Source: Minisyncoccota bacterium (GTDB taxonomy: Bacteria > Patescibacteriota > Minisyncoccia > Phycocordibacterales > PALSA-1337). Taken from it: 64,000 bases of DNA. Both the position numbers and the translations under genes were made by a program. Each line of letters opens with the position of its first letter. Position 1 is the first letter of the stretch. Positions 1-64,000 of the stretch are shown in pieces. The notes below the pieces were generated by a model. The model had not been told where the DNA came from. It did no database searches and saw only the letters and a list, made by a program, of their open reading frames with translations. Location of the stretch: positions 14,445-78,444 of the forward strand of contig JBAZBL010000004.1 of assembly GCA_041671485.1 (NCBI GenBank). The letters are read 5' to 3'.

Positions 1-330
1 TTCAAAAAGATAGAAATAAGGGTGGGGAAGATAATCTTAGCTGAAAAAATACCTGATACAGACAAGCTTTTAAGACTATCTGTTGATTTTGCCGAGAAAG
101 ATGATCTTGGCAATACAAAACCACGACAAATAGTATCTGGTATTTCTCTTTTTTATCCAGATCCGCAAGTGCTGATTGGTAAAACATGTATGTTTGTCGC
201 AAATCTAGAAACAAGAATTATTCGTGGTTATGAAAGCCAAGGAATGATATTGGCAATACTGACACCAGAAGGAAATTTTTCTTTACTAGAACCAAATGCT
301 TCGATACCAGTAGGGGCAAGGGCGTCTTGA
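1..330 (+). CDS. tRNA-binding (EMAP/CsaA-type OB-fold) domain. 5'-partial, likely the C-terminal domain of methionyl-tRNA synthetase or a standalone tRNA-binding protein
   Basis: The frame is open from base 1. The VGKI...E...KL..L.VD motif and length fit the Myf/EMAP tRNA-binding fold. The annotated GTG at 22 is probably internal. Confidence 0.5.
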   Translation, partial: FKKIEIRVGKIILAEKIPDTDKLLRLSVDFAEKDDLGNTKPRQIVSGISLFYPDPQVLIGKTCMFVANLETRIIRGYESQGMILAILTPEGNFSLLEPNASIPVGARAS

Positions 331-342
331 ATTATGACATCA

Positions 343-365
343 ATACCGAGATCGGATCTCGGTAT
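343..365. repeat. 23-nt perfect palindrome ataccgagatcggatctcggtat. A second copy lies inside rsmE at 6705-6726
   Basis: Direct reading: 11-bp arms around a single central base. The same sequence recurs at 6705-6726. Confidence 0.8.
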
Positions 366-423
366 TCCGTTAGATCTTGTTACAGTAGAAAATACTTGCT
401 ACGATTGATCGTATCCATGAAAA

Positions 424-1563: not shown

Positions 1564-3093
1564 TTACCTTGCAAATTCTATTGTTCTCATTTCGCGAATA
1601 ACAATAATTTTGATTTCACCAGGATATTTGAGATCTTTTTCTATCTTCATAGCCAAATCTCGCGCTAGATTGCGTGCCTCTACATCGCTTATTTCTTCTG
1701 GCTTTACAAATACTCGTATTTCACGACCTGCTTGTAGAGCATATGACTTTTCGATACCAGGAAAAGAGTTTGCAGTAGCTTCTAGATCGCCAAGACGTTT
1801 GAGATAATTTTCTATGCTATCACGGCGTGCGCCAGGACGAGCTCCCGATATAGAGTCTGCAGTTTGTACAATACGAGATTCAATTGTCTCATAAGGATAT
1901 TCTTCATGATGAGCTTGCATTGCTTTTATGATCTCTTCTGGAGCTCCAAATTTTTGTAGGATTCTGCGACCAATCTCTACATGTGTGCCACTTACTTCAT
2001 GGTCTAATGCTTTGCCTATATCGTGTAGAAGAGCACCAGCTTTTGCAACTTGGACATTTGCACCCAATTCTTCGGCTATCATACCAGCTATATGAGACAT
2101 TTCTATAGAATGTTGTAAAACATTGTGTCCATAGCTCGTCCTGAAATGAAGTCTTCCCAATATGAGTAGTATCCTAGGATCAAGGCCCAATACACCACAT
2201 TCATATGCAGCCTGTTCGCCTCTTTCTTTTATAGTCTTATTGATATCTTGTTTGGCTTTTTCGACTACCTGTTCTATCCTAGCTGGCTGAATACGGCCGT
2301 CTTTGATGAGTTCTTCCAGTGCATTCTTTGCAATATGACGTCGAACGGGATCGAATGAAGAAATGGTTATTGCGCCAGGAGAATCATCAACCAAGACTTC
2401 TGTACCACTGATACGCTCAAATGCTTTGATGTTACGACCTTCTTTACCGATTATTTTTCCTTTTACATCATCACTTGGTATAGGAACAACAGTAGACATA
2501 ACATCAGAGGCAACAGAAGTAGCAAGCCTCTGAATAGATACAGCCAAAATATCTTTTGCTTTATCTTCTAGCATCTCTTCGCCTTGTGTTTCCAGTTTCT
2601 TGATACGAATCATCAAATCTTCTTCTGCTTGCTTCTCAATAAGCTTAACAAGCTCTTCTTTTGCTTCATTTGAAGTCATCTTGCTTATCTTTTCTAATTC
2701 TTGTTTCCTATGCTCTTCCAATTTGTCTGCTTGTTCACGAATCACTTTTACTTCTGCTACACGTTGTTTGACTATTTCAACTTCTTTATCAAGATCTACT
2801 TGTCTCTTGTCCAACATATCTTCTTTCTTGATAATACGCTCTTCAGATTGACGAATCTTATTTTCTTTTTCACGAATCTCTACTCTAGCTTCTTCTCCTA
2901 GTTTTTGACTCTTTGCCTCGGCATCGGTAGTGATCTTCTTTGCTTCTTCTTTTGCAGAGAGAAGCATCTCTTTGATTTCCAATTCCATAGAACCTTTCTT
3001 GCCGAGAGAAATGATAAGTCGCAGATAATAACCTACGGCTATACCGGCAACTCCTGCTATGGAGAGGAATAATGCTACTAATTTTAATGACAT
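1564..3093 (-). CDS. rny: Ribonuclease Y
   Basis: N-terminal TM helix, long coiled coil, KH motif (GKEGRNIKAFE) and HD domain (HDIGK). Confidence 0.9.
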   Translation of the reverse strand: MSLKLVALFLSIAGVAGIAVGYYLRLIISLGKKGSMELEIKEMLLSAKEEAKKITTDAEAKSQKLGEEARVEIREKENKIRQSEERIIKKEDMLDKRQVDLDKEVEIVKQRVAEVKVIREQADKLEEHRKQELEKISKMTSNEAKEELVKLIEKQAEEDLMIRIKKLETQGEEMLEDKAKDILAVSIQRLATSVASDVMSTVVPIPSDDVKGKIIGKEGRNIKAFERISGTEVLVDDSPGAITISSFDPVRRHIAKNALEELIKDGRIQPARIEQVVEKAKQDINKTIKERGEQAAYECGVLGLDPRILLILGRLHFRTSYGHNVLQHSIEMSHIAGMIAEELGANVQVAKAGALLHDIGKALDHEVSGTHVEIGRRILQKFGAPEEIIKAMQAHHEEYPYETIESRIVQTADSISGARPGARRDSIENYLKRLGDLEATANSFPGIEKSYALQAGREIRVFVKPEEISDVEARNLARDLAMKIEKDLKYPGEIKIIVIREMRTIEFAR

Positions 3094-3331
3094 TGCGGTT
3101 TACGGATCCGCCTCTTTCAAACTAAGGTGAAATGCAAACTTTATGAGTCTTTATGTGAAACTCTGGCTCTATCCTTACGTTTTTTTCTAGCCTTTTTGGA
3201 ATCATAATTTTTATATTCACTAAGTATCGAAAAGGGTGAATCAAAATTTAATTTGGTAACACCATCATCTTATAACAGAGAAAGATATTTGTCTAGCGAA
3301 AGAGACGGTAGTTCTTATGGGATATTTTTGT

Positions 3332-4126
3332 TTAGCCTTCAGAAGGATTGTTTACTTTATTATCGAGCCTTTTGGCTTCCGACCAAGCTAACTCATATAT
3401 TTTTTTCATAACATCTGCGATTTCTTCACTTTCTATAATGATACCAAGCTTCTCACGCCATGAAGCGATCATAACTTTGTTATCGTAAATATTAATTTCT
3501 GGAGTGAATCTATATTTATCATATGGAACAAGAAGACTTTCTCTTTTTTCATCTTTATCCAGTGCTGAACGTTCATGTGCCAGGGGTGTTTCCGGAAAAA
3601 TTGCACGAATATGTATATTTTTCGATGCCCTTCTTTTGAAATATTCTGGAAAATAATTTGGAATACCGCTATTTACATCTTCTACTGATGCATATGCAAG
3701 AATTGTCTCTGAACTACTTAGTGTATCCTCATAAGCATATTTCAAACCATCAACTCCCTCATAGAAACGAATCTTTGGTCTATTTTCAAAAGTATAGAGT
3801 AAGTTTAATTCTGGAATAATATTTTCAGCCCTTTTAATGTTTTCTGTAGCTTGTGTAGCTTGTCTCTTTAAGTATTCAATAATAGCAGTTGGAGGCTCGG
3901 CTACGTATTCTTGCTTGGGTTCTTTTCCTGAAATACTAACAAGCTTCTTATTAACTAGGGAATTGAGGATATCGTAGCCAGTAGTTCTGTTTATACCAGC
4001 TTTATAAGAGATTTTCGTAACCGTTTCTCTACCTAATTCAAGAAGTGCGATATAAACATCGGTTTCTTTGGTACTAAGTCCAAAAGACAAAAGGTTTGTC
4101 TTTAATTGAACTAATTTATTATCCAT
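3332..4126 (-). CDS. TrmB-family transcriptional regulator
   Basis: N-terminal winged HTH resembling TrmB (LS.KE.DVYIALLELG..TV..IS..AGI.R...Y..L..L..K.LV). Confidence 0.55.
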   Translation of the reverse strand: MDNKLVQLKTNLLSFGLSTKETDVYIALLELGRETVTKISYKAGINRTTGYDILNSLVNKKLVSISGKEPKQEYVAEPPTAIIEYLKRQATQATENIKRAENIIPELNLLYTFENRPKIRFYEGVDGLKYAYEDTLSSSETILAYASVEDVNSGIPNYFPEYFKRRASKNIHIRAIFPETPLAHERSALDKDEKRESLLVPYDKYRFTPEINIYDNKVMIASWREKLGIIIESEEIADVMKKIYELAWSEAKRLDNKVNNPSEG

Positions 4127-4242
4127 GTATCAAGTCTATACTCAACTATTCATTGTGTCAATACTTTTCCACAAAAATATGGCTAATACTATAAATATGT
4201 TGGTAAATAAGGCTCTTTCGCTATGTTAATTGACGAATAGTA

Positions 4243-4271
4243 TTGACATTGAGTAAAAAAGATGATATACT
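4243..4271 (+). promoter_or_regulatory. Sigma70-like promoter (TTGACA-17 nt-TATACT) upstream of the 4347 ORF
   Basis: Perfect -35 hexamer and a near-consensus -10 with 17-nt spacing, about 75 nt upstream of the ATG. Confidence 0.45.
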
Positions 4272-4346
4272 GTTAGCAGGACGATAAGGTAAGTTCTTTG
4301 AGAACCTGCTTGCGTCATAACAGTAAACAATTAAAAAAGGGAAATT

Positions 4347-4823
4347 ATGAAGACTAAACTCATGATTTGGACGACGGTGAGAATCGGAACAATTAAGAGT
4401 CTCGAAAATGTGGATGATCTACTAGATGGGTTTGTGTCGATAAGGACATGGTTTAAGGATCAAACAATAGGTCTTGCCCAGTCCGAGCTTGAACTTGACC
4501 TGGTTAAGATCAAAGGCGGAGATCTCTTCATGACGGACCGTTACTCTAGAAGAGAAATCTGCACAATGGCGTTGACACTTGGTCTTGAATTGTGTCCAGC
4601 CGAGGTTGCTCTGGCCTTAGTAACACAAGACAAAATTCCGTCCAGGTCAACCGAGATCAATATTGGTTCGGAAGAATCTGTCGGCGGGCGTTCTGATGTA
4701 TTCATGAGTGTAAACTCAAGACTTGGTGCTATCTGTCTTAACTCCTATGTTGATCCATCCGAAGGATTTGACGATTACTCAGATTGGGTCTTCGTCAAGC
4801 CTCGCAAGCAGGAACGGCAGTAG
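4347..4823 (+). CDS. Hypothetical protein, GC-enriched relative to its flanks and probably horizontally acquired
   Basis: 158-aa ORF with its own strong promoter and terminator. Its composition is visibly more GC-rich than neighbouring genes. Confidence 0.45.
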   Translation: MKTKLMIWTTVRIGTIKSLENVDDLLDGFVSIRTWFKDQTIGLAQSELELDLVKIKGGDLFMTDRYSRREICTMALTLGLELCPAEVALALVTQDKIPSRSTEINIGSEESVGGRSDVFMSVNSRLGAICLNSYVDPSEGFDDYSDWVFVKPRKQERQ

Positions 4824-4872
4824 GTCTGCCAAACGCTTTGGAGTTCGCCACGGCGAAAGCGTCAAACTTCAA

Positions 4873-4902
4873 CCCTACACGAGAAATCGTGTGGGGTTTT
4901 AA
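4873..4902 (+). terminator. Intrinsic terminator after the 4347-4823 gene
   Basis: CCCTACACGAgaaaTCGTGTGGGG hairpin followed by TTTT. Confidence 0.5.
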
Positions 4903-4923
4903 CTTTTCAATGTGAAATATTTC

Positions 4924-5469
4924 CTACTTTTTACTAAACCCAATTGGTGCTTTCATGGGTACTGGTTCGTCAAGTAGGTGTTTGAGGATATTGAGAACTT
5001 TTATCAGTTGCTGGCCTTGTTTTTCTTGTTCAGATTCTAAAACTTTCATCTTTGCTGCCAATTCCTTGTGGGTAGCAAGCATTTCGCGTAATTTGATAAA
5101 TGCACGGACTACAAATACACTCACTTGTACCGCGCGAGGACTTTTCAAGACGGCAGACAACATCGTAACACCGTGTTCAGTGAAAGCATATGGCAAATAA
5201 CGGACACCTCCCCAACTTGAGGTCGCAAATTGCGACCTCAAGTTTTTGTATTCTTCATTTGTCAATTGAAACATGAAATCCTTGGGAAATCTATCGATAT
5301 TTCTTCGTACTTGTTCATTCAATCTCTTTGCACTCACACCATATAATCTAGCAAGGTCAGAATCTAACATTATTTTCTGTCCACGAATCAGAAAGATTCT
5401 ATGCTCAATAGATTCATCGGGAATAATCTGTAGATCCTTGGAATTATCAGACAATTTTAACTTTTTCAT
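4924..5469 (-). CDS. ORF6N-domain (KilA-N-like) protein, phage or mobile-element associated
   Basis: The IRGQK.MLDSDLA.LYGV..KRLNEQV.RN..RFP.DFMFQLT..E motif matches the ORF6N domain. Confidence 0.6.
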   Translation of the reverse strand: MKKLKLSDNSKDLQIIPDESIEHRIFLIRGQKIMLDSDLARLYGVSAKRLNEQVRRNIDRFPKDFMFQLTNEEYKNLRSQFATSSWGGVRYLPYAFTEHGVTMLSAVLKSPRAVQVSVFVVRAFIKLREMLATHKELAAKMKVLESEQEKQGQQLIKVLNILKHLLDEPVPMKAPIGFSKK

Positions 5470-6173: not shown

Positions 6174-6887
6174 ATGAGACTTCATAGATTTTATTATAGA
6201 GAATTGATAGGGAATAGAAGTGAGATAACTATCAATTCTCTAGAAATTACGAAACAGATTCGTAGGGTTTTCAGATTGAAGACAGGAGATCTGGTTATAA
6301 TCTTTGATGGTTCTGGTTTTGACTATGTTTGCAAGATAAATAACTTCACAGAAGATACAATGAAGCTTTCTATCAATGAGAAGAATAGCAGTCGATACAT
6401 ACCAGAGAAAGATATTGTATTGTGCGTAGCAATAGTAAAGAAAGATACTTTTGAATGGATTGTAGAGAAAGCAACAGAACTAGGAGTAACAAATATAATA
6501 CCGATCATATCTGAAAGAAGTGAGAAGAAATCCTTGAATATAGAAAGACTAAAAAAGATATCAATAGAAGCTAGCGAACAGAGTGGTAGAGGACGTGTGC
6601 CAATAATTGAGCCTATTGTGTCACTAATAGAAGCAATAAATACCTATAAGGATCAATACGGAGGTCAGACCTCCGTATATGCGTTTCACACAGAAGGGGA
6701 TACTATACCGAGATCGGATCTCGGTAATGATAGAAAAATTGTCATATTTATTGGCCCAGAAGGCGGTTGGTCTCCATCTGAAATAGATATGTTTCACAAA
6801 GATAAAATATCCATACATTGTCTAGGTAAACAAATACTGCGCACCGAAACGGCTGTAATCGCTGTATTATCTAGATTTGTATTCTAA
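6174..6887 (+). CDS. rsmE: 16S rRNA (uracil1498-N3)-methyltransferase RsmE. It carries an in-frame ~70-nt GC-rich double-palindrome segment (6657-6726)
   Basis: PUA-like N-terminal domain plus SPOUT C-terminal domain with a GPEGGWS.E motif. Confidence 0.75.
   Translation: MRLHRFYYRELIGNRSEITINSLEITKQIRRVFRLKTGDLVIIFDGSGFDYVCKINNFTEDTMKLSINEKNSSRYIPEKDIVLCVAIVKKDTFEWIVEKATELGVTNIIPIISERSEKKSLNIERLKKISIEASEQSGRGRVPIIEPIVSLIEAINTYKDQYGGQTSVYAFHTEGDTIPRSDLGNDRKIVIFIGPEGGWSPSEIDMFHKDKISIHCLGKQILRTETAVIAVLSRFVF
6657..6677. repeat. 21-nt palindrome tacggaggtcagacctccgta inside rsmE. Its reverse-complement twin lies at 39915-39937, upstream of polA
   Basis: Exact match to the reverse complement of the polA-upstream copy. 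Confidence 0.8.
6705..6726. repeat. Second copy of the ataccgagatcggatctcggta palindrome, in-frame within rsmE
   Basis: 22/23 nt identical to 343-365. Confidence 0.8.
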
Positions 6888-12700: not shown

Positions 12701-14776
12701 ATGCCCTCACTCAACCTCCAACAACAAAAAGCCGTAGATACGCATACTGGTCCTGTGCTCATAATCGCAGGAGCAGGGGCGGGCAAAACGCGTGTAATCA
12801 CTCATAGAATATTGAACCTCATCAAAAGTGGTATTGCGCCTGACAGTATTCTCGCAATAACTTTTACGAATAAAGCTGCCAAGGAAATGAAAGAGAGGGT
12901 TTTCGATCTACTAGAGAATGAAAAGAGTTTGAACTTGCCAATTACAGCAGATTGGCAAAATGAAAAACCATTTGTTAGTACTTTTCATTCGCTCGGCGTA
13001 TACATCATACGAAATCATGCGAAAGAATTTGGACTGAATAGGCATTTTACGATATACGATAGAACAGATTCGAAAAGGGCCGTGAAAGAGGCAATGATGC
13101 AAGCATCTGTTGATCCAAAAAAGTTTGATCCTGGTTTTATATTAAATAAAATTTCATTGACAAAGGGTGATGGACTCGGCCGACTACAATATCTAGATAG
13201 TTCGAAGGGATTTGTAGAAGAGATAGTCGCAGAAGTTTGGGAAAAGTATGATGCTATATTGGCGAAAGACAAAGCATTGGACTTCGATGATCTACTGTCA
13301 AAAACGGCTCAACTAATTGGCAGAAATGAAAGCCTGAAAAAATTCTATGGTAATAAATGGAAGTATATCCATGTAGATGAATATCAAGATACAAATAAAG
13401 TCCAATACAATCTCATCAAATATCTAACCGAAGGACATGTCTTGTCTGGACAAGAAAAAAATATATGTGTGGTAGGTGATATAGATCAAAATATATATAG
13501 TTGGCGAGGTGCAACGATAGAAAATATTTTGAATTTCGAAAAAGATTATCCAGAATCACAGGTGATCACTCTCGAGAAAAATTATCGCTCTACGAAGATC
13601 ATCTTGGCAGCAGCAAATGATGTCATAAAGAAAAATGTAATGCGTAGAGAAAAAACTCTTTATACAGACAATGTTGAGGGAGACAAAATATCTATCCTTG
13701 TTTCTTATACAGAAGACGATGAAGCTCGCTCTATTGCAGATAATGCAAGAAAACTGATAGAGAATGGTGTTGAAGCAAAAGAAATAGCTGTTTTGTATAG
13801 AGCCAATTTCCAGTCCAGAGCATTGGAAGAAGCATTTATCAAAAAAAATGTACCATATCAACTTTTGGGTACAAAATTCTTCGAAAGAAAAGAGGTAAAA
13901 GACGTTCTTGCATACATTCGAGCTGCACTGAATCATGGTAGCTTGTTGCAAGAATCACACTCTTCAAAAGGATTGCACGAAGCGAAGCGAGGGGTGGGTG
14001 ATATTTCAGAAAATGAAAGTTGGGGAGATATAGCTAGAATAATAAATATACCAGCAAGAGGGATAGGGAAGGTAACAGTTGCAAAGATACTAAATGCAAG
14101 ATCTGATCTTGTGACTCTTCCCATGCCAATACAAGATAAAGTCAGAGAGTTTTTCAAATTGCTTGAAGATATTGGTAAAGAAATAATAGAGAAAAAGCCG
14201 TCTGAAGTAGTCAAATTTGTGATCAAAGAGACAGGCATGGAGAGGATGTACAAAAAAGGAGATAGTGAAGATGAAGAGCGTCTTTTGAATATGCAAGAAT
14301 TGGTATCTGTTGCAATGCAATACGATAGTGCAACCGTTGCGGAAGTGCGACCTCCGCAACCTCCGCATTTAGAAGGAATCGAGAAAATGCTAGAAAACGC
14401 AGCGCTTGCAACAGATCAGGACGAAATCAAGGCAGATAAAAATGCAGTTAGACTCATGACTGTACATGCATCGAAAGGGCTAGAATTTGAGCATGTATTC
14501 ATTGCAGGAATGGAACAAAACCTTTTTCCATTCAAGCATATGGATGAAGAGAAAGTGAGCAAGTCCGAGGAAGAAGAAGAGAGACGTTTATTCTATGTTG
14601 CACTTACGAGAGCGAAGAAGAGGATATGTTTGAGCTATGCAATAGTCAGAACTATTTACGGTGCACAGAGAGTGAATACTCCTTCAGAATTTATAGATGA
14701 TATAGATAAGGGACTAATCGAAGAGCAGGTAGTAGAAAAACCAACAGGTGCAAAAGCGATATTTATTGATTTTTGA
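12701..14776 (+). CDS. uvrD: ATP-dependent DNA helicase UvrD/PcrA. It carries an in-frame GC-rich hairpin (14336-14360)
   Basis: Superfamily-1 helicase motifs: GAGAGKT Walker A, DEYQDT, and the VHASKGLEF region. Confidence 0.9.
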   Translation: MPSLNLQQQKAVDTHTGPVLIIAGAGAGKTRVITHRILNLIKSGIAPDSILAITFTNKAAKEMKERVFDLLENEKSLNLPITADWQNEKPFVSTFHSLGVYIIRNHAKEFGLNRHFTIYDRTDSKRAVKEAMMQASVDPKKFDPGFILNKISLTKGDGLGRLQYLDSSKGFVEEIVAEVWEKYDAILAKDKALDFDDLLSKTAQLIGRNESLKKFYGNKWKYIHVDEYQDTNKVQYNLIKYLTEGHVLSGQEKNICVVGDIDQNIYSWRGATIENILNFEKDYPESQVITLEKNYRSTKIILAAANDVIKKNVMRREKTLYTDNVEGDKISILVSYTEDDEARSIADNARKLIENGVEAKEIAVLYRANFQSRALEEAFIKKNVPYQLLGTKFFERKEVKDVLAYIRAALNHGSLLQESHSSKGLHEAKRGVGDISENESWGDIARIINIPARGIGKVTVAKILNARSDLVTLPMPIQDKVREFFKLLEDIGKEIIEKKPSEVVKFVIKETGMERMYKKGDSEDEERLLNMQELVSVAMQYDSATVAEVRPPQPPHLEGIEKMLENAALATDQDEIKADKNAVRLMTVHASKGLEFEHVFIAGMEQNLFPFKHMDEEKVSKSEEEEERRLFYVALTRAKKRICLSYAIVRTIYGAQRVNTPSEFIDDIDKGLIEEQVVEKPTGAKAIFIDF

Positions 14777-14784
14777 TTCCTTGA

Positions 14785-14891
14785 AAGCAAGGCGCAATAT
14801 TGTATTTGTATGGAAATTAAAGTGGACGGAAGTACACAAAACACATCTAATAATTTAATTTCCATACAAATACAATATTGCGCCTTGCTTT
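14785..14891. repeat. Large perfect inverted repeat (37-bp arms, ~32-nt loop) between uvrD and rsmA
   Basis: aaagcaaggcgcaatattgtatttgtatggaaattaaa ... tttaatttccatacaaatacaatattgcgccttgcttt. Confidence 0.85.
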
Positions 14892-21651: not shown

Positions 21652-21684
21652 CACTGTGTCAAACAAAATATTAATTGAATAATC

Positions 21685-21712
21685 TTGGATCCCCGCTTTC
21701 GCGGGGATGACA
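21685..21712. repeat. 28-nt GC-rich hairpin repeat tggatccccgctttcgcggggatgacac, identical to the copy at 29800-29827
   Basis: Exact 28/28 match. The ATCCCCGC/GCGGGGAT stem is followed by an ATG that serves as a start codon here. Confidence 0.8.
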
Positions 21713-22354
21713 CCATTGAATATGACAACCAAATCCAAAACAACACAAGACTTTGTACCCATTCAGGAAATACGTGATGGTGTAGTAATACTCCGAAATG
21801 GTGGCATGAGATCTGTCATACTCGCATCATCATTAAACTTTGCACTCAAATCGGCTGATGAACAGGCATCTATCATGTATCAATTCCAGAATTTCCTCAA
21901 TTCACTGGACTTTTCTATACAAATATTTATACAATCAAAAAAGCTAGATATCAGGCCATATATCGCTCTTTTGGAAGAGAGATACAAAGAGCAAGTATCA
22001 GAACTTATGAAGATACAGGTGCGTGAATACATAGAGTTCGTAAGAACATTTGTCGAAAATACAAATATCATGACAAAGAATTTCTTTGTTGTTATACCTT
22101 ATGATCCGCCTATCATAGGTGGTGGCAAGAATCCTATCTCAAGATATTTTCCTGGGAAAGACAATGTTGGTCCAACACCAGATGAAAAATTCCAAGAATA
22201 TCGCACCCAGCTAGAACAGAGGGTTTCTGTTGTGGAACAAGGACTAGTGAGGTGTGGTGTCCGAACTGCAGAACTTGGTACCGAAGAAGTGGTCGAACTA
22301 TTTTATAAATTATTCAATCCAGGAGAGACAGAGAAGCCGATACAAATCACATGA
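21707..22354 (+). CDS. VirB4/TraC N-terminal-domain-like protein (separate ORF)
   Basis: The F.PIQEIRDGVV.LRNGG.R.V pattern resembles the N-terminal domain of VirB4/CagE ATPases. It ends 46 nt before the ATPase ORF, in a different frame. Confidence 0.45.
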   Translation: MTPLNMTTKSKTTQDFVPIQEIRDGVVILRNGGMRSVILASSLNFALKSADEQASIMYQFQNFLNSLDFSIQIFIQSKKLDIRPYIALLEERYKEQVSELMKIQVREYIEFVRTFVENTNIMTKNFFVVIPYDPPIIGGGKNPISRYFPGKDNVGPTPDEKFQEYRTQLEQRVSVVEQGLVRCGVRTAELGTEEVVELFYKLFNPGETEKPIQIT

Positions 22355-29737: not shown

Positions 29738-29915
29738 AGTGAGATAAGTATTGCATTTTTATTATCTCCATGCAAATTAGAGAATCAATTCTCTAGACGT
29801 GGATCCCCGCTTTCGCGGGGATGACACAATAAAATAGTTCTCCACAGCTTATCAACATACTTTTGATGTCTCCACAAGTTCCCAAAATTATAAACAGGTA
29901 TATAATGCAAACAAT
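29738..29915. promoter_or_regulatory. dnaA upstream region with three co-oriented DnaA-box-like 9-mers and the 28-nt hairpin repeat; candidate oriC part 1
   Basis: TTCTCCACA (29838), TTATCAACA (29849) and GTCTCCACA (29868) against the TTATCCACA consensus. Confidence 0.5.
29800..29827. repeat. Second copy of the 28-nt hairpin repeat (see 21685)
   Basis: Exact match to 21685-21712. Confidence 0.8.
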
Positions 29916-39869: not shown

Positions 39870-39914
39870 ATTGATATTATTATATCAGAAAAAGATATAT
39901 AGGTCAGAGACCTA

Positions 39915-39937
39915 TACGGAGGTCTGACCTCCGTGTA
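39915..39937. repeat. Palindrome tacggaggtctgacctccgtgta, twin of the rsmE-internal copy, 10 nt upstream of the polA ATG. It is preceded by a second palindrome, aggtcagagacct
   Basis: Direct reading; reverse complement of 6657-6677. Confidence 0.8.
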
Positions 39938-39947
39938 GAATAATGAT

Positions 39948-42521
39948 ATGGATAAAAATAATGATCGAAATAGACTAGTTCTTCTAGATGTACATGCAAT
40001 ATTACATCGTGCATATCATGCTTTACCAGACTTCATGACAGCGAAAGGTGAGCCAACAGGAGCATTATATGGTCTTTCTTCTATGCTTATCAAGATTATT
40101 GACGATTTGAAGCCAGACTATCTCATAGCTTGCTATGATGTAAAAGGTCCAACTCATAGGCATGAATTGTATAAAGCTTATAAAGCCGACAGGAAAAAGG
40201 CTGAAGATGATCTCATAAAGCAGATAATCAAGTCTCGCGAAGTATTCATTTCTCTCAATATTCCTATATATGATAAACAAGGCTTTGAAGCGGATGATAT
40301 TTTGGGGACGATCGTTGAGAAGATCAAAAATCAAAAATCAAAAATAAAAGATAAAGGACAGAACGCGGGATTAGAAATAATTATTGCATCGGGAGATATG
40401 GATACGATGCAATTGGTAAAAGGGGATGATGTAAAAGTATATACTCTCAAAAAGGGTATAAATGACACAATTATTTATAATGAAAATGCTGTAAATAAAA
40501 GATTTGGTTTTGGTCCAGAATTGATACCAGATTACAAAGGATTGCGCGGAGATCCGTCTGACAATATTCCCGGTATCAAAGGAATTGGTGAAAAGACAGC
40601 AACTATACTTATTCAAAGATTTGGAAAGATTGAAAATATATTTCATGAATTGGAATTGGGTCATAAAGAAGAATTTGAGAAAATTGGTATTACACCTAGA
40701 ATGATAAAGATTATCGAGGAGAATAAAGAAGAAGCGGAATTTAGCAAAATGCTTGCCACGATAAATAAAGATGTGCCTATAGATTTTGAATTACCCACCA
40801 AAACATTCAAAGAAAATATTGATTCGAAGAAAATAGGGGATCTGTGGCGCGAATTAGAATTTAGAACATTGCCACAGAGGTTTGAGAAAGTTATTGGGGG
40901 ACTGTTTACAGGACGAAACCTTGAAGATATGGTTCCTTCACCCACTTCGCCCCGCGACTCCGCAAATATGGCTTCCTCACCCACGATCGGCCTCGCCGAC
41001 ACTGACAAAACGCTCGGCGAGGCCGTCTTTTCTCGGCGGGGATTGTCGGGCGATAGAACTATTGGTCTCCACCCCGCCTCCGAAGAGGGTTCGGAAGCCA
41101 TATTTGCGGAGTCGCGGGGCGAAAACGACAAATCATTCAAACAAACAGCAATTGCATTGTGGCTTCTGAATTCGAATACTACGAATCCAAAAATGGAAGA
41201 TGTGTTAAATTTTGCAGGCACAAATGATTTTGATCAAGCTAGTAAGATCATATTCAAAGAAATAGATCAAAAGGGATTGAGAAAAGTTTATGATGATATA
41301 GAATTGCCACTTATCGACACAATAGACAAGATGGAAAAGAGAGGAATCAAAATTAATAAGAGTATATTCGGAGAATTATCAAAAAAATATCATATAGAAC
41401 TTGAAATTCTAGAGAAAAAAATATGGGATATTGCTGGGTGTGAATTTAATATCAATTCACCCAAACAATTGGGAGAACTATTGTTCGATAAACTTGGTCT
41501 CAAGATAAAAAATGCAAAGAAAACAGGAGGAGGAGCGCGCTCTACGAGAGAATCAGAATTGGAAAAGATGGTGGATATGCATCCGATAATTAATTTTATA
41601 TTCCAATATCGTGAATTAGCAAAATTATTGTCTACATATATTGATGCAATACCACCACTTTTGGATGCAAATAACAGATTGCATACACATTTCTTGCAAA
41701 CAGGCACGACAACTGGACGAATGGCATCGCAAGATCCAAATATGCAGAATATTCCTATTAGATCGGACTATGGTAAAGCGATAAGAAAAGGGTTTGTTGC
41801 GGAAGAGGGTTTTAAATTAGTCGCTTTTGATTATTCACAGATGGAATTACGAATATCAGCATTTCTTTCTCTGGATGAAAAATTGATTGAAATATTCAGA
41901 AACGGAGAAGACGTACATACTTCTGTGGCATCTTTTGTATTTGGTGTTGATCATTCAAGTGTTACTAAAGAGATGAGGAGAAAAGCAAAAGTAATTAATT
42001 TTGGAATTTTGTATGGTATGGGAGTAAATGCATTGAAACAAAATTTAAAGACGAGCAAAGAAGAAGCACAAAAATTCATGGATGATTATTTCAGAACATT
42101 CAGTGGACTTGCAAGCTATATAGATAAAGTAAAAAGTGAAACTGCCAATCGTGGTTATACAGAGACATTTTTTGGACGCAGGAGATATTTCGAAGGTATA
42201 AAATCTAGAATTCCATATATCAAAGCGCAAGCCGAGCGTATGGCCATAAATGCACCCATTCAAGGCACAGAAGCAGATGTGATAAAGCTTGCAATGGTAA
42301 AAATAGAAGAATATTTTAGGCGTGAGGATATAGAGAATGATGCATTTCTCTTGCTTCAAGTGCATGATGAACTCATATGTGAGGTAAAAGAAGATATTAG
42401 AGAGAAAGTTTCTAGGGACATTAAAAATATCATGGAATCTATAATAGATCCAAAAGATATTTCTGGAATTGTTTTGTCTGTTGAGGTGGCGATCGGCAAT
42501 GATTGGGGAGAACTCAAATGA
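39948..42521 (+). CDS. polA: DNA polymerase I (5'-3' exonuclease plus polymerase domains), carrying a 174-nt in-frame GC-rich palindromic element
   Basis: N-terminal FEN/5'-nuclease motifs (LLDVHAILHRAYHA; EADD) and C-terminal pol motifs A/B/C (DYSQMELR; KAKVINFGILYG; QVHDEL). Confidence 0.9.
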   Translation: MDKNNDRNRLVLLDVHAILHRAYHALPDFMTAKGEPTGALYGLSSMLIKIIDDLKPDYLIACYDVKGPTHRHELYKAYKADRKKAEDDLIKQIIKSREVFISLNIPIYDKQGFEADDILGTIVEKIKNQKSKIKDKGQNAGLEIIIASGDMDTMQLVKGDDVKVYTLKKGINDTIIYNENAVNKRFGFGPELIPDYKGLRGDPSDNIPGIKGIGEKTATILIQRFGKIENIFHELELGHKEEFEKIGITPRMIKIIEENKEEAEFSKMLATINKDVPIDFELPTKTFKENIDSKKIGDLWRELEFRTLPQRFEKVIGGLFTGRNLEDMVPSPTSPRDSANMASSPTIGLADTDKTLGEAVFSRRGLSGDRTIGLHPASEEGSEAIFAESRGENDKSFKQTAIALWLLNSNTTNPKMEDVLNFAGTNDFDQASKIIFKEIDQKGLRKVYDDIELPLIDTIDKMEKRGIKINKSIFGELSKKYHIELEILEKKIWDIAGCEFNINSPKQLGELLFDKLGLKIKNAKKTGGGARSTRESELEKMVDMHPIINFIFQYRELAKLLSTYIDAIPPLLDANNRLHTHFLQTGTTTGRMASQDPNMQNIPIRSDYGKAIRKGFVAEEGFKLVAFDYSQMELRISAFLSLDEKLIEIFRNGEDVHTSVASFVFGVDHSSVTKEMRRKAKVINFGILYGMGVNALKQNLKTSKEEAQKFMDDYFRTFSGLASYIDKVKSETANRGYTETFFGRRRYFEGIKSRIPYIKAQAERMAINAPIQGTEADVIKLAMVKIEEYFRREDIENDAFLLLQVHDELICEVKEDIREKVSRDIKNIMESIIDPKDISGIVLSVEVAIGNDWGELK
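40948..41121. mobile_element. 174-nt GC-rich element with perfect 29-bp terminal inverted repeats, in-frame within polA (RPE/MITE-like)
   Basis: Left arm cgccccgcgactccgcaaatatggcttcc (40948-40976) is the exact reverse complement of the right arm (41093-41121). The length is a multiple of three and inner palindromes are present. Confidence 0.7.
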
Positions 42522-49304: not shown

Positions 49305-49901
49305 ATGAAAAAGAAAAATCTAAATATACCAAAACCGTCACCAGAAGAAGTCCAGTACTATCTGAATTTTTGGGATTCTAATGCTGATCTTAAATTATCT
49401 GATAGTAGTCTAAAATATTTATTTTCGAAAACCTATCCGCAGAACAATAATCTTGAAGAAGTACTTATAAAGGTGTGTACACTGAAAAGTTTGTTTGGTT
49501 TGATTATATTTTCACCAATCACAGTTGCTAAGCATATCATATCCCTAGAAATAGACAGCAAATTTTTGAAAGACGACCTAATGATAGTAAATGAAATTGC
49601 TTCGGTTAATATCAGTACAAATAGAATCATTAACTTCTATTCATTTGCAACAAAATACTGTAGTTTTCATAAGCCAAATATATATCTTAAATATGATTAC
49701 CATGTATCAAAACTACTTAAGCATCATGAACAGACGGATAAATTTGATGAATTTACAGAGATGGAATTAAGATACTACGATAAATATCACGAAGTCTTCA
49801 TAAATTTTAGAAAAAAATATGGACTAGATCTATTTAGTTTAGAACAGATTGAAAGATACTTATATTTAGCAGGTAAAAAATATTTTCCTCAAAATTATTA
49901 G
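49305..49901 (+). CDS. Hypothetical protein (element cargo)
   Basis: 198-aa ORF, preceded by a structured leader with a terminator. Confidence 0.35.
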   Translation: MKKKNLNIPKPSPEEVQYYLNFWDSNADLKLSDSSLKYLFSKTYPQNNNLEEVLIKVCTLKSLFGLIIFSPITVAKHIISLEIDSKFLKDDLMIVNEIASVNISTNRIINFYSFATKYCSFHKPNIYLKYDYHVSKLLKHHEQTDKFDEFTEMELRYYDKYHEVFINFRKKYGLDLFSLEQIERYLYLAGKKYFPQNY

Positions 49902-63910: not shown

Positions 63911-64000
63911 CCCGACTGAAAAGATCAAAGATTAAAAATCAAAGATCAAAGATTGATTCACTGTGGCGAACAAAAATAAGATCTAACAAAAAACATCCCG

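Follow-up and report, generated by a model that had tools for sequence, protein, structure and literature searches.

Two perfect palindromes of 21 nt, which lie in frame inside the gene rsmE of a Candidatus Paceibacterota metagenome-assembled genome (MAG; Patescibacteria, or candidate phyla radiation, CPR; G+C 36.7%), are probably elements of a Patescibacteria-wide family similar to repetitive extragenic palindromes (REPs) and paired with a clade of single-stranded DNA transposases (IS200-related, HUH/Y1) that resemble REP-associated tyrosine transposases (RAYTs). We favour this reading because the identical palindrome flanks a RAYT-like gene in other CPR genomes, and because of the matches of its product in Pfam, in NCBIfam and to structure 4ER8. 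The window, by which we mean the whole stretch of 64,000 nt analysed here, holds four full copies. As shown here, the 21-mers form a dispersed, CPR-restricted and strictly self-complementary family, and a copy can be gained, as seen from an additional 27/29 nt at the rsmE stop codon of a close relative. The rsmE copies themselves are, by sequence comparison, old residents in loops of normal length and not recent net insertions.

The palindromes of the window

The rsmE product carries the NCBI name 'RsmE family RNA methyltransferase' (Candidatus Paceibacterota). Both palindromes lie in loops before and after its 'AFHT' strand, upstream of GPEGG, and are translated as QYGGQTSVY (first) and IPRSDLGN (second). 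As the original prediction had stated, they are perfect, in frame and 27 nt apart, and they were located at 6657-6677 (type 1, TACGGAGGTCaGACCTCCGTA) and 6706-6726 (type 2, TACCGAGATCgGATCTCGGTA). The two types are related: two arm positions distinguish them, and at both the opposite arm carries the compensating change. The palindromes measure 21-25 nt with stems of 10-12 bp and hairpin energies of -11.6 to -14.9 kcal/mol; for example, the type-1 copy of rsmE folds as RNA with -14.9 kcal/mol (z = -4.1).

The 21-mer of type 2 recurs intact at 344-364, in an intergenic copy with a longer stem (Table 1) that begins 13 nt past the stop codon of the gene for a tRNA-binding-domain protein (22..330) and whose end lies 59 nt ahead of a tRNA gene. 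Identity between the rsmE copy and 343-365 had been claimed, and it holds over 22 nt (343-364), with position 365 differing from 6727. The neighbouring tRNA (424-497), previously named tRNA-Trp, was called tRNA-Gly(UCC) by ARAGORN, and the earlier name is wrong because the anticodon loop reads TTTCCAA. The type-1 copy upstream of polA had been described as an exact reverse complement lying 10 nt from the start codon. It matches at 20/21 bases (the last base is G), its perfect palindrome is 19 nt long (39916-39934), and it stops 13 nt short of the polA ATG (39948), between divergent genes. A shorter hairpin abuts this copy, and the two form a possible doublet because the GGTC...GACC apex is common to both; adjacent doublets also occur in the loci L009, L019, L038 and L130. 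The same contig holds a fifth copy, of type 2, ~3.7 kb before the window begins, which gives five copies in the ~82 kb of this genome that were read.

These numbers are far above those of shuffled sequence. The degenerate 21-mer TACSGAGRTCNGAYCTCSGTA matches the window 4 times as compared with 0.00 in 100 dinucleotide shuffles, and perfect hairpins (stem >=10, loop <=3) occur 6 times as compared with a mean of 0.35 and a maximum of 2 in 100 shuffles. Decayed copies are not significantly enriched in the window, where 11 one-mismatch half-sites beyond the four full copies compare with 5.7 expected and a shuffle maximum of 11. One candidate decayed copy, TGCGGAAGTGCGACCTCCGCA (14338-14358, 4 mismatches to the pattern), lies in a UvrD-like gene (12701..14776).

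Three other identities were considered for the hairpins and rejected. They are not intrinsic transcription terminators, being followed by TATGCG, ATGATA, TTCCGT and GTAGAA with no T-run, and the location of the copies (two intragenic, one between divergent genes) also opposes that reading. In an Rfam scan of the window at gathering thresholds, only three tRNAs and a LOOT RNA were found, and the palindromes match no known RNA family; the LOOT RNA (RF03000, 49141-49262, 85.4 bits, full length) lies upstream of an open reading frame (ORF) starting at 49305. Part of the type-2 palindrome resembles an Illumina adapter by eye, and an assembly or adapter artefact was rejected because the same in-frame rsmE copies recur in independent assemblies from different samples (ERZ27249449, SRR6484324 and SRR18595301) and in a relative from SRR22216446 and SRR22216451.

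Table 1 The rsmE gene and the palindromes of the family in the window
Feature	Position	Strand	Description
rsmE	6174..6887	+	RsmE, 16S rRNA U1498 methyltransferase family; Pfam Methyltrans_RNA
Type-1 palindrome, rsmE	6656..6678		ATACGGAGGTC-a-GACCTCCGTAT; perfect stem, 11-bp arms; translated (Q)YGGQTSV(Y)
Type-2 palindrome, rsmE	6705..6726		(A)TACCGAGATC-g-GATCTCGGTA; 10-bp arms; translated IPRSDLG(N)
Free type-2 copy	342..366		AATACCGAGATC-g-GATCTCGGTATT; 12-bp arms; intergenic
Type-1 copy upstream of polA	39915..39935		TACGGAGGTC-t-GACCTCCGTg; one mismatch, complementary centre base
Second, shorter hairpin	39898..39916		TATAGGTC-aga-GACCTATA; abuts the polA-upstream copy

Distribution in Patescibacteria and link to a RAYT-like gene

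An exact scan for the motif TACSGAGRTC-N-GAYCTCSGTA in one genome per species of 185,579 species (GTDB; 596 Gb) matched 49 loci, and 46 of them belong to Patescibacteria, namely Paceibacterota, Saccharibacteria, Nomura-, Kaiser-, Ryan-, Azam- and Giovannonibacteria. By our calculation ~9 chance matches are expected; the three matches outside CPR fit chance and the CPR matches do not. Other CPR genomes contain from at least 4 to ~17 motif loci each among the stretches fetched. With these multiple copies per genome, the phylum restriction and the five copies found here, the earlier proposal of a dispersed repeat family and not coincidence is borne out. The motif leaves two positions free per arm, and at these positions the arms are complementary in 67/67 matches, with four compensated variants and 0 mixed ones; many copies have a stem that extends further, into flanks specific to the locus. 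The unpaired centre base can be exchanged for its complement, as seen for G/C between the window and the closest relative (locus L004) and for T/A between L008 and L030, whose flanks are identical. No match was found in 2.9 M viral contigs, and a phage origin is unsupported.

When 56 copies were classified by location with a rough ORF-based method, ~36 were intergenic, many of them 0-15 nt from a gene 3' end, 4 overlapped a 3' end and up to 14 lay inside ORFs. Some CPR copies stand just before a ribosome-binding site, and some overlap a stop codon. Copies were also found well inside genes for Lgt, a MurD-like ligase, TsaD, LeuRS and a 6-phosphogluconolactonase-like protein; the copies in the first four and in other genes, which are in frame and in other CPR genomes, bear out the proposal that the element can reside in frame in essential genes.

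The link to a transposase comes from other CPR genomes. In L024, a palindrome at 3158 lies 41 nt ahead of an ORF of 223 aa (3219-3887), and a second one at 3891 directly follows the stop codon. In L036, palindromes lie just upstream of, inside and downstream of the ORF of a 220-aa homologue (3398-4057), and in L029 (a Saccharibacteria MAG) and L023 a homologue is found <600 nt from a palindrome copy. Palindromes flanking a transposase gene correspond to the REPtrons that the literature on REPs and RAYTs describes (PMC3733652, PMC6006769). The L036 protein passes the Pfam profile Y1_Tnp (PF01797; E = 4e-9, 37 bits as compared with a cut-off of 23), and the best NCBIfam match of both the L024 and L036 proteins is REP_Tyr_transpos (REP-associated tyrosine transposase, best E = 8e-12). 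The HUH motif (H79/H81, 'MPNHFHLL') and the tyrosine Y139 ('YIHLNP'; YIHxNP) are invariant in the RAYT-like proteins. A search of PDB by sequence returned no match. When the fold of the L036 protein, as modelled with AlphaFold (pLDDT 89.9), was compared with PDB, the top-ranking structure was 4ER8 (E = 1.9e-6, TM (target) 0.70), in which the RAYT of E. coli is complexed with a REP hairpin; the TnpA structures of IS608 and ISDra2 ranked lower. Judged by these matches, the L024 and L036 transposases would form a distant RAYT clade.

This clade is large, as at least 7,783 relatives were found at E <= 1e-5 and the named members are mostly from CPR. We examined 80 metagenomic loci holding homologues for flanking palindromes. 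In ~30 of the 80, a matched lineage-specific perfect palindrome stands on both sides of the gene within ~100 nt, and in ~14 the same palindrome lies inside the ORF, at +119 to +176 nt counted from where the match begins. Loci with the cognate palindrome in the ORF include L055, L066, L081, L085, L091, L095, L102, L108, L110, L124, L130, L133 and L036. The internal copy of L036 (+165 nt) falls in a low-confidence loop of the model, residues 51-60, and such internal copies may reflect autoregulation or tolerated self-insertion. The lineage palindromes differ in sequence and have a common architecture, which is a variable arm, (G/A)TC-N-GA(C/T) and the complementary arm.

Age of the rsmE copies and rival explanations

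In the protein alignment, the second palindrome coincides with no gap and the first with an excess of no more than 3-4 residues, and alignment to the solved RsmE structures 4E8B and 5VM8 shows no net insertion at the palindromes. The DNA of six rsmE orthologues with 54-61% protein identity was compared at both sites. At the second site, perfect palindromes stand in the same register in L137 (ACTGAGGTC-C-GACCTCAGT, 19 nt) and L144 (CGAAGGTC-C-GACCTTCG, 17 nt); L138 has CGAGGTC-A-cACCTCG with one mismatch and L136 has AGGTC-G-GACCT, both also in register, and the L135 copy is decayed (pairs 4/10). Across the orthologues 82.5% of cells at this site are paired, as compared with 26-39% for slid partners; four pairs are changed on both sides, and 0/500 shuffles were as good. 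The first site holds GCGAAGGTC-C-GACCTTCGC in L144, a decayed copy (15/21 bases match, pairs 5/10) encoding YGSPTSL in L139, two one-mismatch palindromes in L138 and no palindrome in the L052 gene. The first-site loop of the L138 orthologue (3001-3732, P0003) is 8 residues longer (EVGLRPNLGDVGLRP), and the two palindromes that encode it, CGAAGTCGGACTCCG and CGATGTCGGACTTCG, are of another class and look like a decayed doublet. At the protein level, 'RSDL' is found at the second site in 14/120 homologues and SDL in 21/120, and other palindrome-like peptides (RRSDLR, EVGPP and GGLTSS) occur at both sites in homologues. No free copies of the L144 and L137 palindrome classes were found among 144 loci. 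Thus the comparison of RsmE orthologues has a mixed outcome, in which palindromes stand at the same two positions in several distant relatives, as in a conserved RsmE region, and copies also exist elsewhere in the genome; this does not refute the repeat-family reading. Arms of the two rsmE sites differ less within one genome (distances of 3-4) than between genomes (5-7), and one cross comparison also gave 3; this lends weak support to concerted evolution of the two sites within a genome, and our reading does not rest on it.

The closest relative, L004, allows a finer view. Its rsmE DNA is 87.9% identical to that of the window, and the 42 palindrome nt contain only 1 change as compared with 5.3 expected (P for no change in the 40 arm bases = 0.006). 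The type-1 palindrome is identical, and the sole change is in the unpaired centre base of type 2, G to its complement C. The codons flanking the palindromes diverge, with 12/57, 5/28 and 9/64 mismatches. In L004 and L005, a third copy, TACGGAGGTCtGACCTCCGTA, takes the place of the rsmE stop codon, extends the protein by SEYGGLTSV and sits between rsmE and the convergent trigger-factor gene. In the window, which lacks this copy, the two stop codons abut, and the net difference is 27/29 nt without a clear target duplication; as to whether copies are associated with target-site duplications, this single datable insertion offers nothing beyond a possible TA. The resident rsmE copies, on the other hand, are judged old because of the in-register palindromes with compensatory changes in orthologues, the arms unchanged in comparison with L004 and the missing net length gain.

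Several points weigh against the REP-like reading. First, the intragenic copies show no net length gain in comparison with the RsmE of E. coli and Neisseria and with CPR orthologues, so simple insertion does not explain them. Second, the fixed-register covariation is also expected from a selected, rsmE-specific RNA or DNA hairpin. Third, the CPR elements are without the unpaired 5' GTAG/CGTC tag and the imperfections of classical REPs, and the copy density is low, at ~1 per 16 kb. Fourth, the curated NCBIfam cut-off (NF047646) is missed by the transposases, which score 45.3 and 20.9 bits as compared with 80, and the flanking copies are mutually inverted in only about half of the metagenomic loci, although they are in L024 and L036. 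Finally, no RAYT-like gene was found by tblastn in the 82 kb of this genome (window and contig extensions; best E = 0.27), and therefore the transposase link rests on other CPR genomes.

The rival that survives best, and that we still regard as unlikely, is that selection maintains the rsmE palindromes as cis-acting hairpins, in the transcript or in the DNA itself, for example for RNase processing or stability, as a translational pause or as a landing site for a protein. Their likeness to the dispersed repeats would then be secondary, with the free copies either derived from those of rsmE or sharing one binding protein with them. The same register and codons in distant orthologues with compensatory double changes, the arms that stay unchanged as compared with L004 while flanking codons diverge, and the stability of the hairpins (-11.6 and -14.9 kcal/mol) are all consistent with it. 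However, identical 21-22-mers occur at intergenic sites without relation to rsmE, and distant CPR lineages carry them in unrelated genes; the pairing was lost with the gene kept in L135, L139 (first site) and L052. In addition, hairpin-templated correction would give the same covariation without a function.

A second rival, which we consider distinctly improbable, dispenses with transposition. Near-palindromic coding sequence (AGR-TCN-GAY-CT for RSDL) would be perfected in place via intrastrand template switching or short-patch conversion, and RAYT genes would be just another place where palindromes accumulate. The intragenic copies without net length change, the RSDL encoded by type 2 and common at the second site of orthologues, and the centre bases that flip to their complement fit this idea. 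Some weight also comes from a 31-nt perfect palindrome at 5214-5244, AACTTGAGGTCGCAA-A-TTGCGACCTCAAGTT, whose core GAGGTC...GACCTC is that of the 21-mers. It lies inside an ORF with an ORF6N domain (4924..5469, minus strand), encodes NLRSQFATSS, and is not an insertion because this peptide is conserved across ORF6N proteins of many phyla; the ORF6N gene belongs to a three-gene block (3332-5469) that is absent from L004. However, perfection in place leaves unexplained the 21/21 identity between unrelated loci and distant CPR classes, the clean gain of 27/29 nt in L004, and the tight link to RAYT-like genes, seen in dozens of lineages with a palindrome particular to each.

It is very improbable that the palindromes are recognised by some factor that is not a transposase, either as uptake sequences in natural transformation or as operators of a dimeric regulator: the sequences are phylum-restricted, over-represented, present in coding and non-coding DNA as uptake sequences are, and in many copies placed just upstream of ribosome-binding sites or at gene ends, but each RAYT lineage is flanked by a different palindrome, and a dimeric protein tolerating both half-site variants would not require that mixed half-sites be 0/67. 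Classical uptake sequences (DUS/USS) of Neisseria and Haemophilus occur at ~1 per kb, far from the density found here, and are recognised by sequence and not as hairpins; the arms of the CPR elements are always complementary with compensated variants.

In the REP-like reading, a RAYT encoded elsewhere in the genome, or since lost, would recognise the hairpin on single-stranded DNA and would spread copies of it without target duplication, by analogy with 4ER8 and IS200/IS605-type enzymes. Copies landing in or beside permissive loops would survive, because the palindrome can be read through in all three frames (a T at the centre closes one of them), and would give short hydrophilic peptides (YGGxTSV, [R/P]RSDL[R/G] and TEVxPP). 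The arms of residents may stay complementary through selection acting on the hairpin, through hairpin-templated correction or through the two together; such upkeep would yield compensated variants and centre-base flips, and the amino acids of the loop would then follow the DNA palindrome. The centre-base flips observed here fit hairpin-templated correction. Most likely, the rsmE elements are tolerated, translated passengers in two surface loops and not functional parts of the enzyme.

A bolder version, which we put forward only as a rather unlikely extension, is that in reduced genomes the REP hairpins of essential genes are long-lived master copies, maintained non-selectively, which seed free copies and dictate loop residues. 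They would keep fixed codon positions across deep divergence, and hairpin-templated correction or RAYT-dependent short-patch overwriting would preserve self-complementarity with protein length unchanged. Loop residues such as the covarying P..G, L..S and R..R around RSDL would be set by the palindrome and not by protein function, and the same process could perfect quasi-palindromes over conserved motifs, for example NLRSQFATSS in the ORF6N gene.

Relation to known repeat systems and significance

The closest known system is that of REPs and RAYTs (REPtrons) in Proteobacteria, including TnpA-REP of E. coli (4ER8) and the REPINs of Pseudomonas. Both systems comprise dispersed, GC-rich hairpins of ~21-25 nt, mostly at gene ends, and in both the same repeat flanks a single Y1/HUH transposase gene, here in other CPR genomes. 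REPs are likewise mostly extragenic near gene 3' ends (PMC3733652). A classical REP is defined by an unpaired GTAG or CGTC tag at the 5' foot of an imperfect hairpin (PMC3733652, PMC6006769). In contrast, the CPR elements are perfect palindromes with a centre of 1 nt (sometimes 3 nt); TAC...GTA lies within the stem on both sides, and the flanks show no conserved tag. The CPR transposase clade (~200-230 aa) lies below the NCBIfam cut-off and often has its own palindrome inside the ORF. Because the palindromes are perfect, the unpaired tag is missing and the transposases fall below the NCBIfam threshold, we do not file the elements as classical REPs. Intragenic, 'protein-decorating' REPs have been reported by Di Nocera et al. 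2013 (PMC3733652) in frame in genes for known proteins, DNA polymerase I, UvrD and tRNA synthetases among them; the encoded peptides are short, and related species sometimes have a REP at the same site. However, those REPs carry the GTAG/CGTC tag, are often dimers encoding 20-30 aa and appear as insertions, whereas here single 21-nt perfect palindromes stand in loops of normal length and in register across orthologues of 54-60% identity. In-frame REPs and Rickettsia palindromic elements (RPEs) are already published (PMC3733652), and the new side would be the Patescibacteria as host of a REP-like system; we found no paper linking REP or RAYT to Patescibacteria or CPR.

RPEs resemble the 21-mers as translated palindromic repeats that occupy essential genes in frame in a reduced genome. 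RPEs are ~100-150 bp long and add 30-50 aa, and they are not known to be associated with a transposase. The 21-mers are unrelated to RPEs in sequence and are not counted among them, being 21-nt units that encode 7 residues without net length gain. The RPE description is met more closely by another element of the window, which lies within polA (39948..42521) at 40946-41123. This 178-nt element has 62% G+C in a genome of 37% G+C, arms of 37 nt that are 95% complementary with 104 nt between them, and a predicted fold of -122 kcal/mol over 211 nt. The polA frame stays open through it for ~60 residues (TSPRDSANMASSP...AESRGE), and it resembles an RPE-like in-frame insertion, or one like a miniature inverted-repeat transposable element (MITE), distinct from the 21-mers.

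IS200/IS605 elements are comparable in having a Y1/HUH transposase, which in their case binds subterminal hairpins of single-stranded DNA, and in making no target-site duplication, as none is seen in the one datable insertion here. In IS200/IS605, however, the whole gene-carrying unit moves and is multi-copy, and its two end hairpins differ; here solo hairpins far outnumber genes, with 46 loci as compared with 4 that have the gene. The 21-mers are not MITEs, which we took to consist of a non-coding core (at least ~50 bp) enclosed by terminal inverted repeats and to show a target-site duplication: the whole element is one palindrome of 21-25 nt, and the gain of 27/29 nt came without duplication beyond the possible TA.

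The window holds further repeats. A perfect 38-nt inverted repeat (14784-14821 / 14854-14891; 32-nt spacer, -58.9 kcal/mol) lies between the genes of a UvrD-like helicase and an rRNA adenine dimethylase, and is AT-rich and unrelated to the 21-mers. Two intergenic copies of a 53-nt repeat (21670-21722 and 29784-29836), 81% identical, have the identical hairpin ATCCCCGC-tttc-GCGGGGAT and may represent either another small family of hairpin repeats or a terminator common to both sites. A 32-nt perfect palindrome (1070-1101, AGTAAAAGACCGCCCTAGGGCGGTCTTTTACT) upstream of the HU gene 3' end looks like a bidirectional terminator. Finally, a 37-nt A-rich repeat (TGAGAAGATCAAAAATCAAAAATC..., 86% identical) occurs at 40316-40352 in polA and at 63917-63953 beside tRNA-Arg.

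The REP/RAYT system is known mainly from Proteobacteria, and Patescibacteria have very small genomes with few recognised mobile elements. If our reading is true, a phylum-wide REP-like family with a large RAYT clade would extend REP/RAYT to a major uncultured radiation. For annotation, it would help to recognise these hairpins and the odd peptide motifs that they leave in conserved proteins (YGGxTSV, RRSDLR and TEVxPP). It also calls for caution, as covariation in coding regions of CPR can stem from such elements and need not mean a functional RNA. Particularly, the persistence and covariation of the rsmE palindromes offer a natural system in which selection can be set against templated correction, and in which the reach of a selfish palindrome over protein sequence can be followed.

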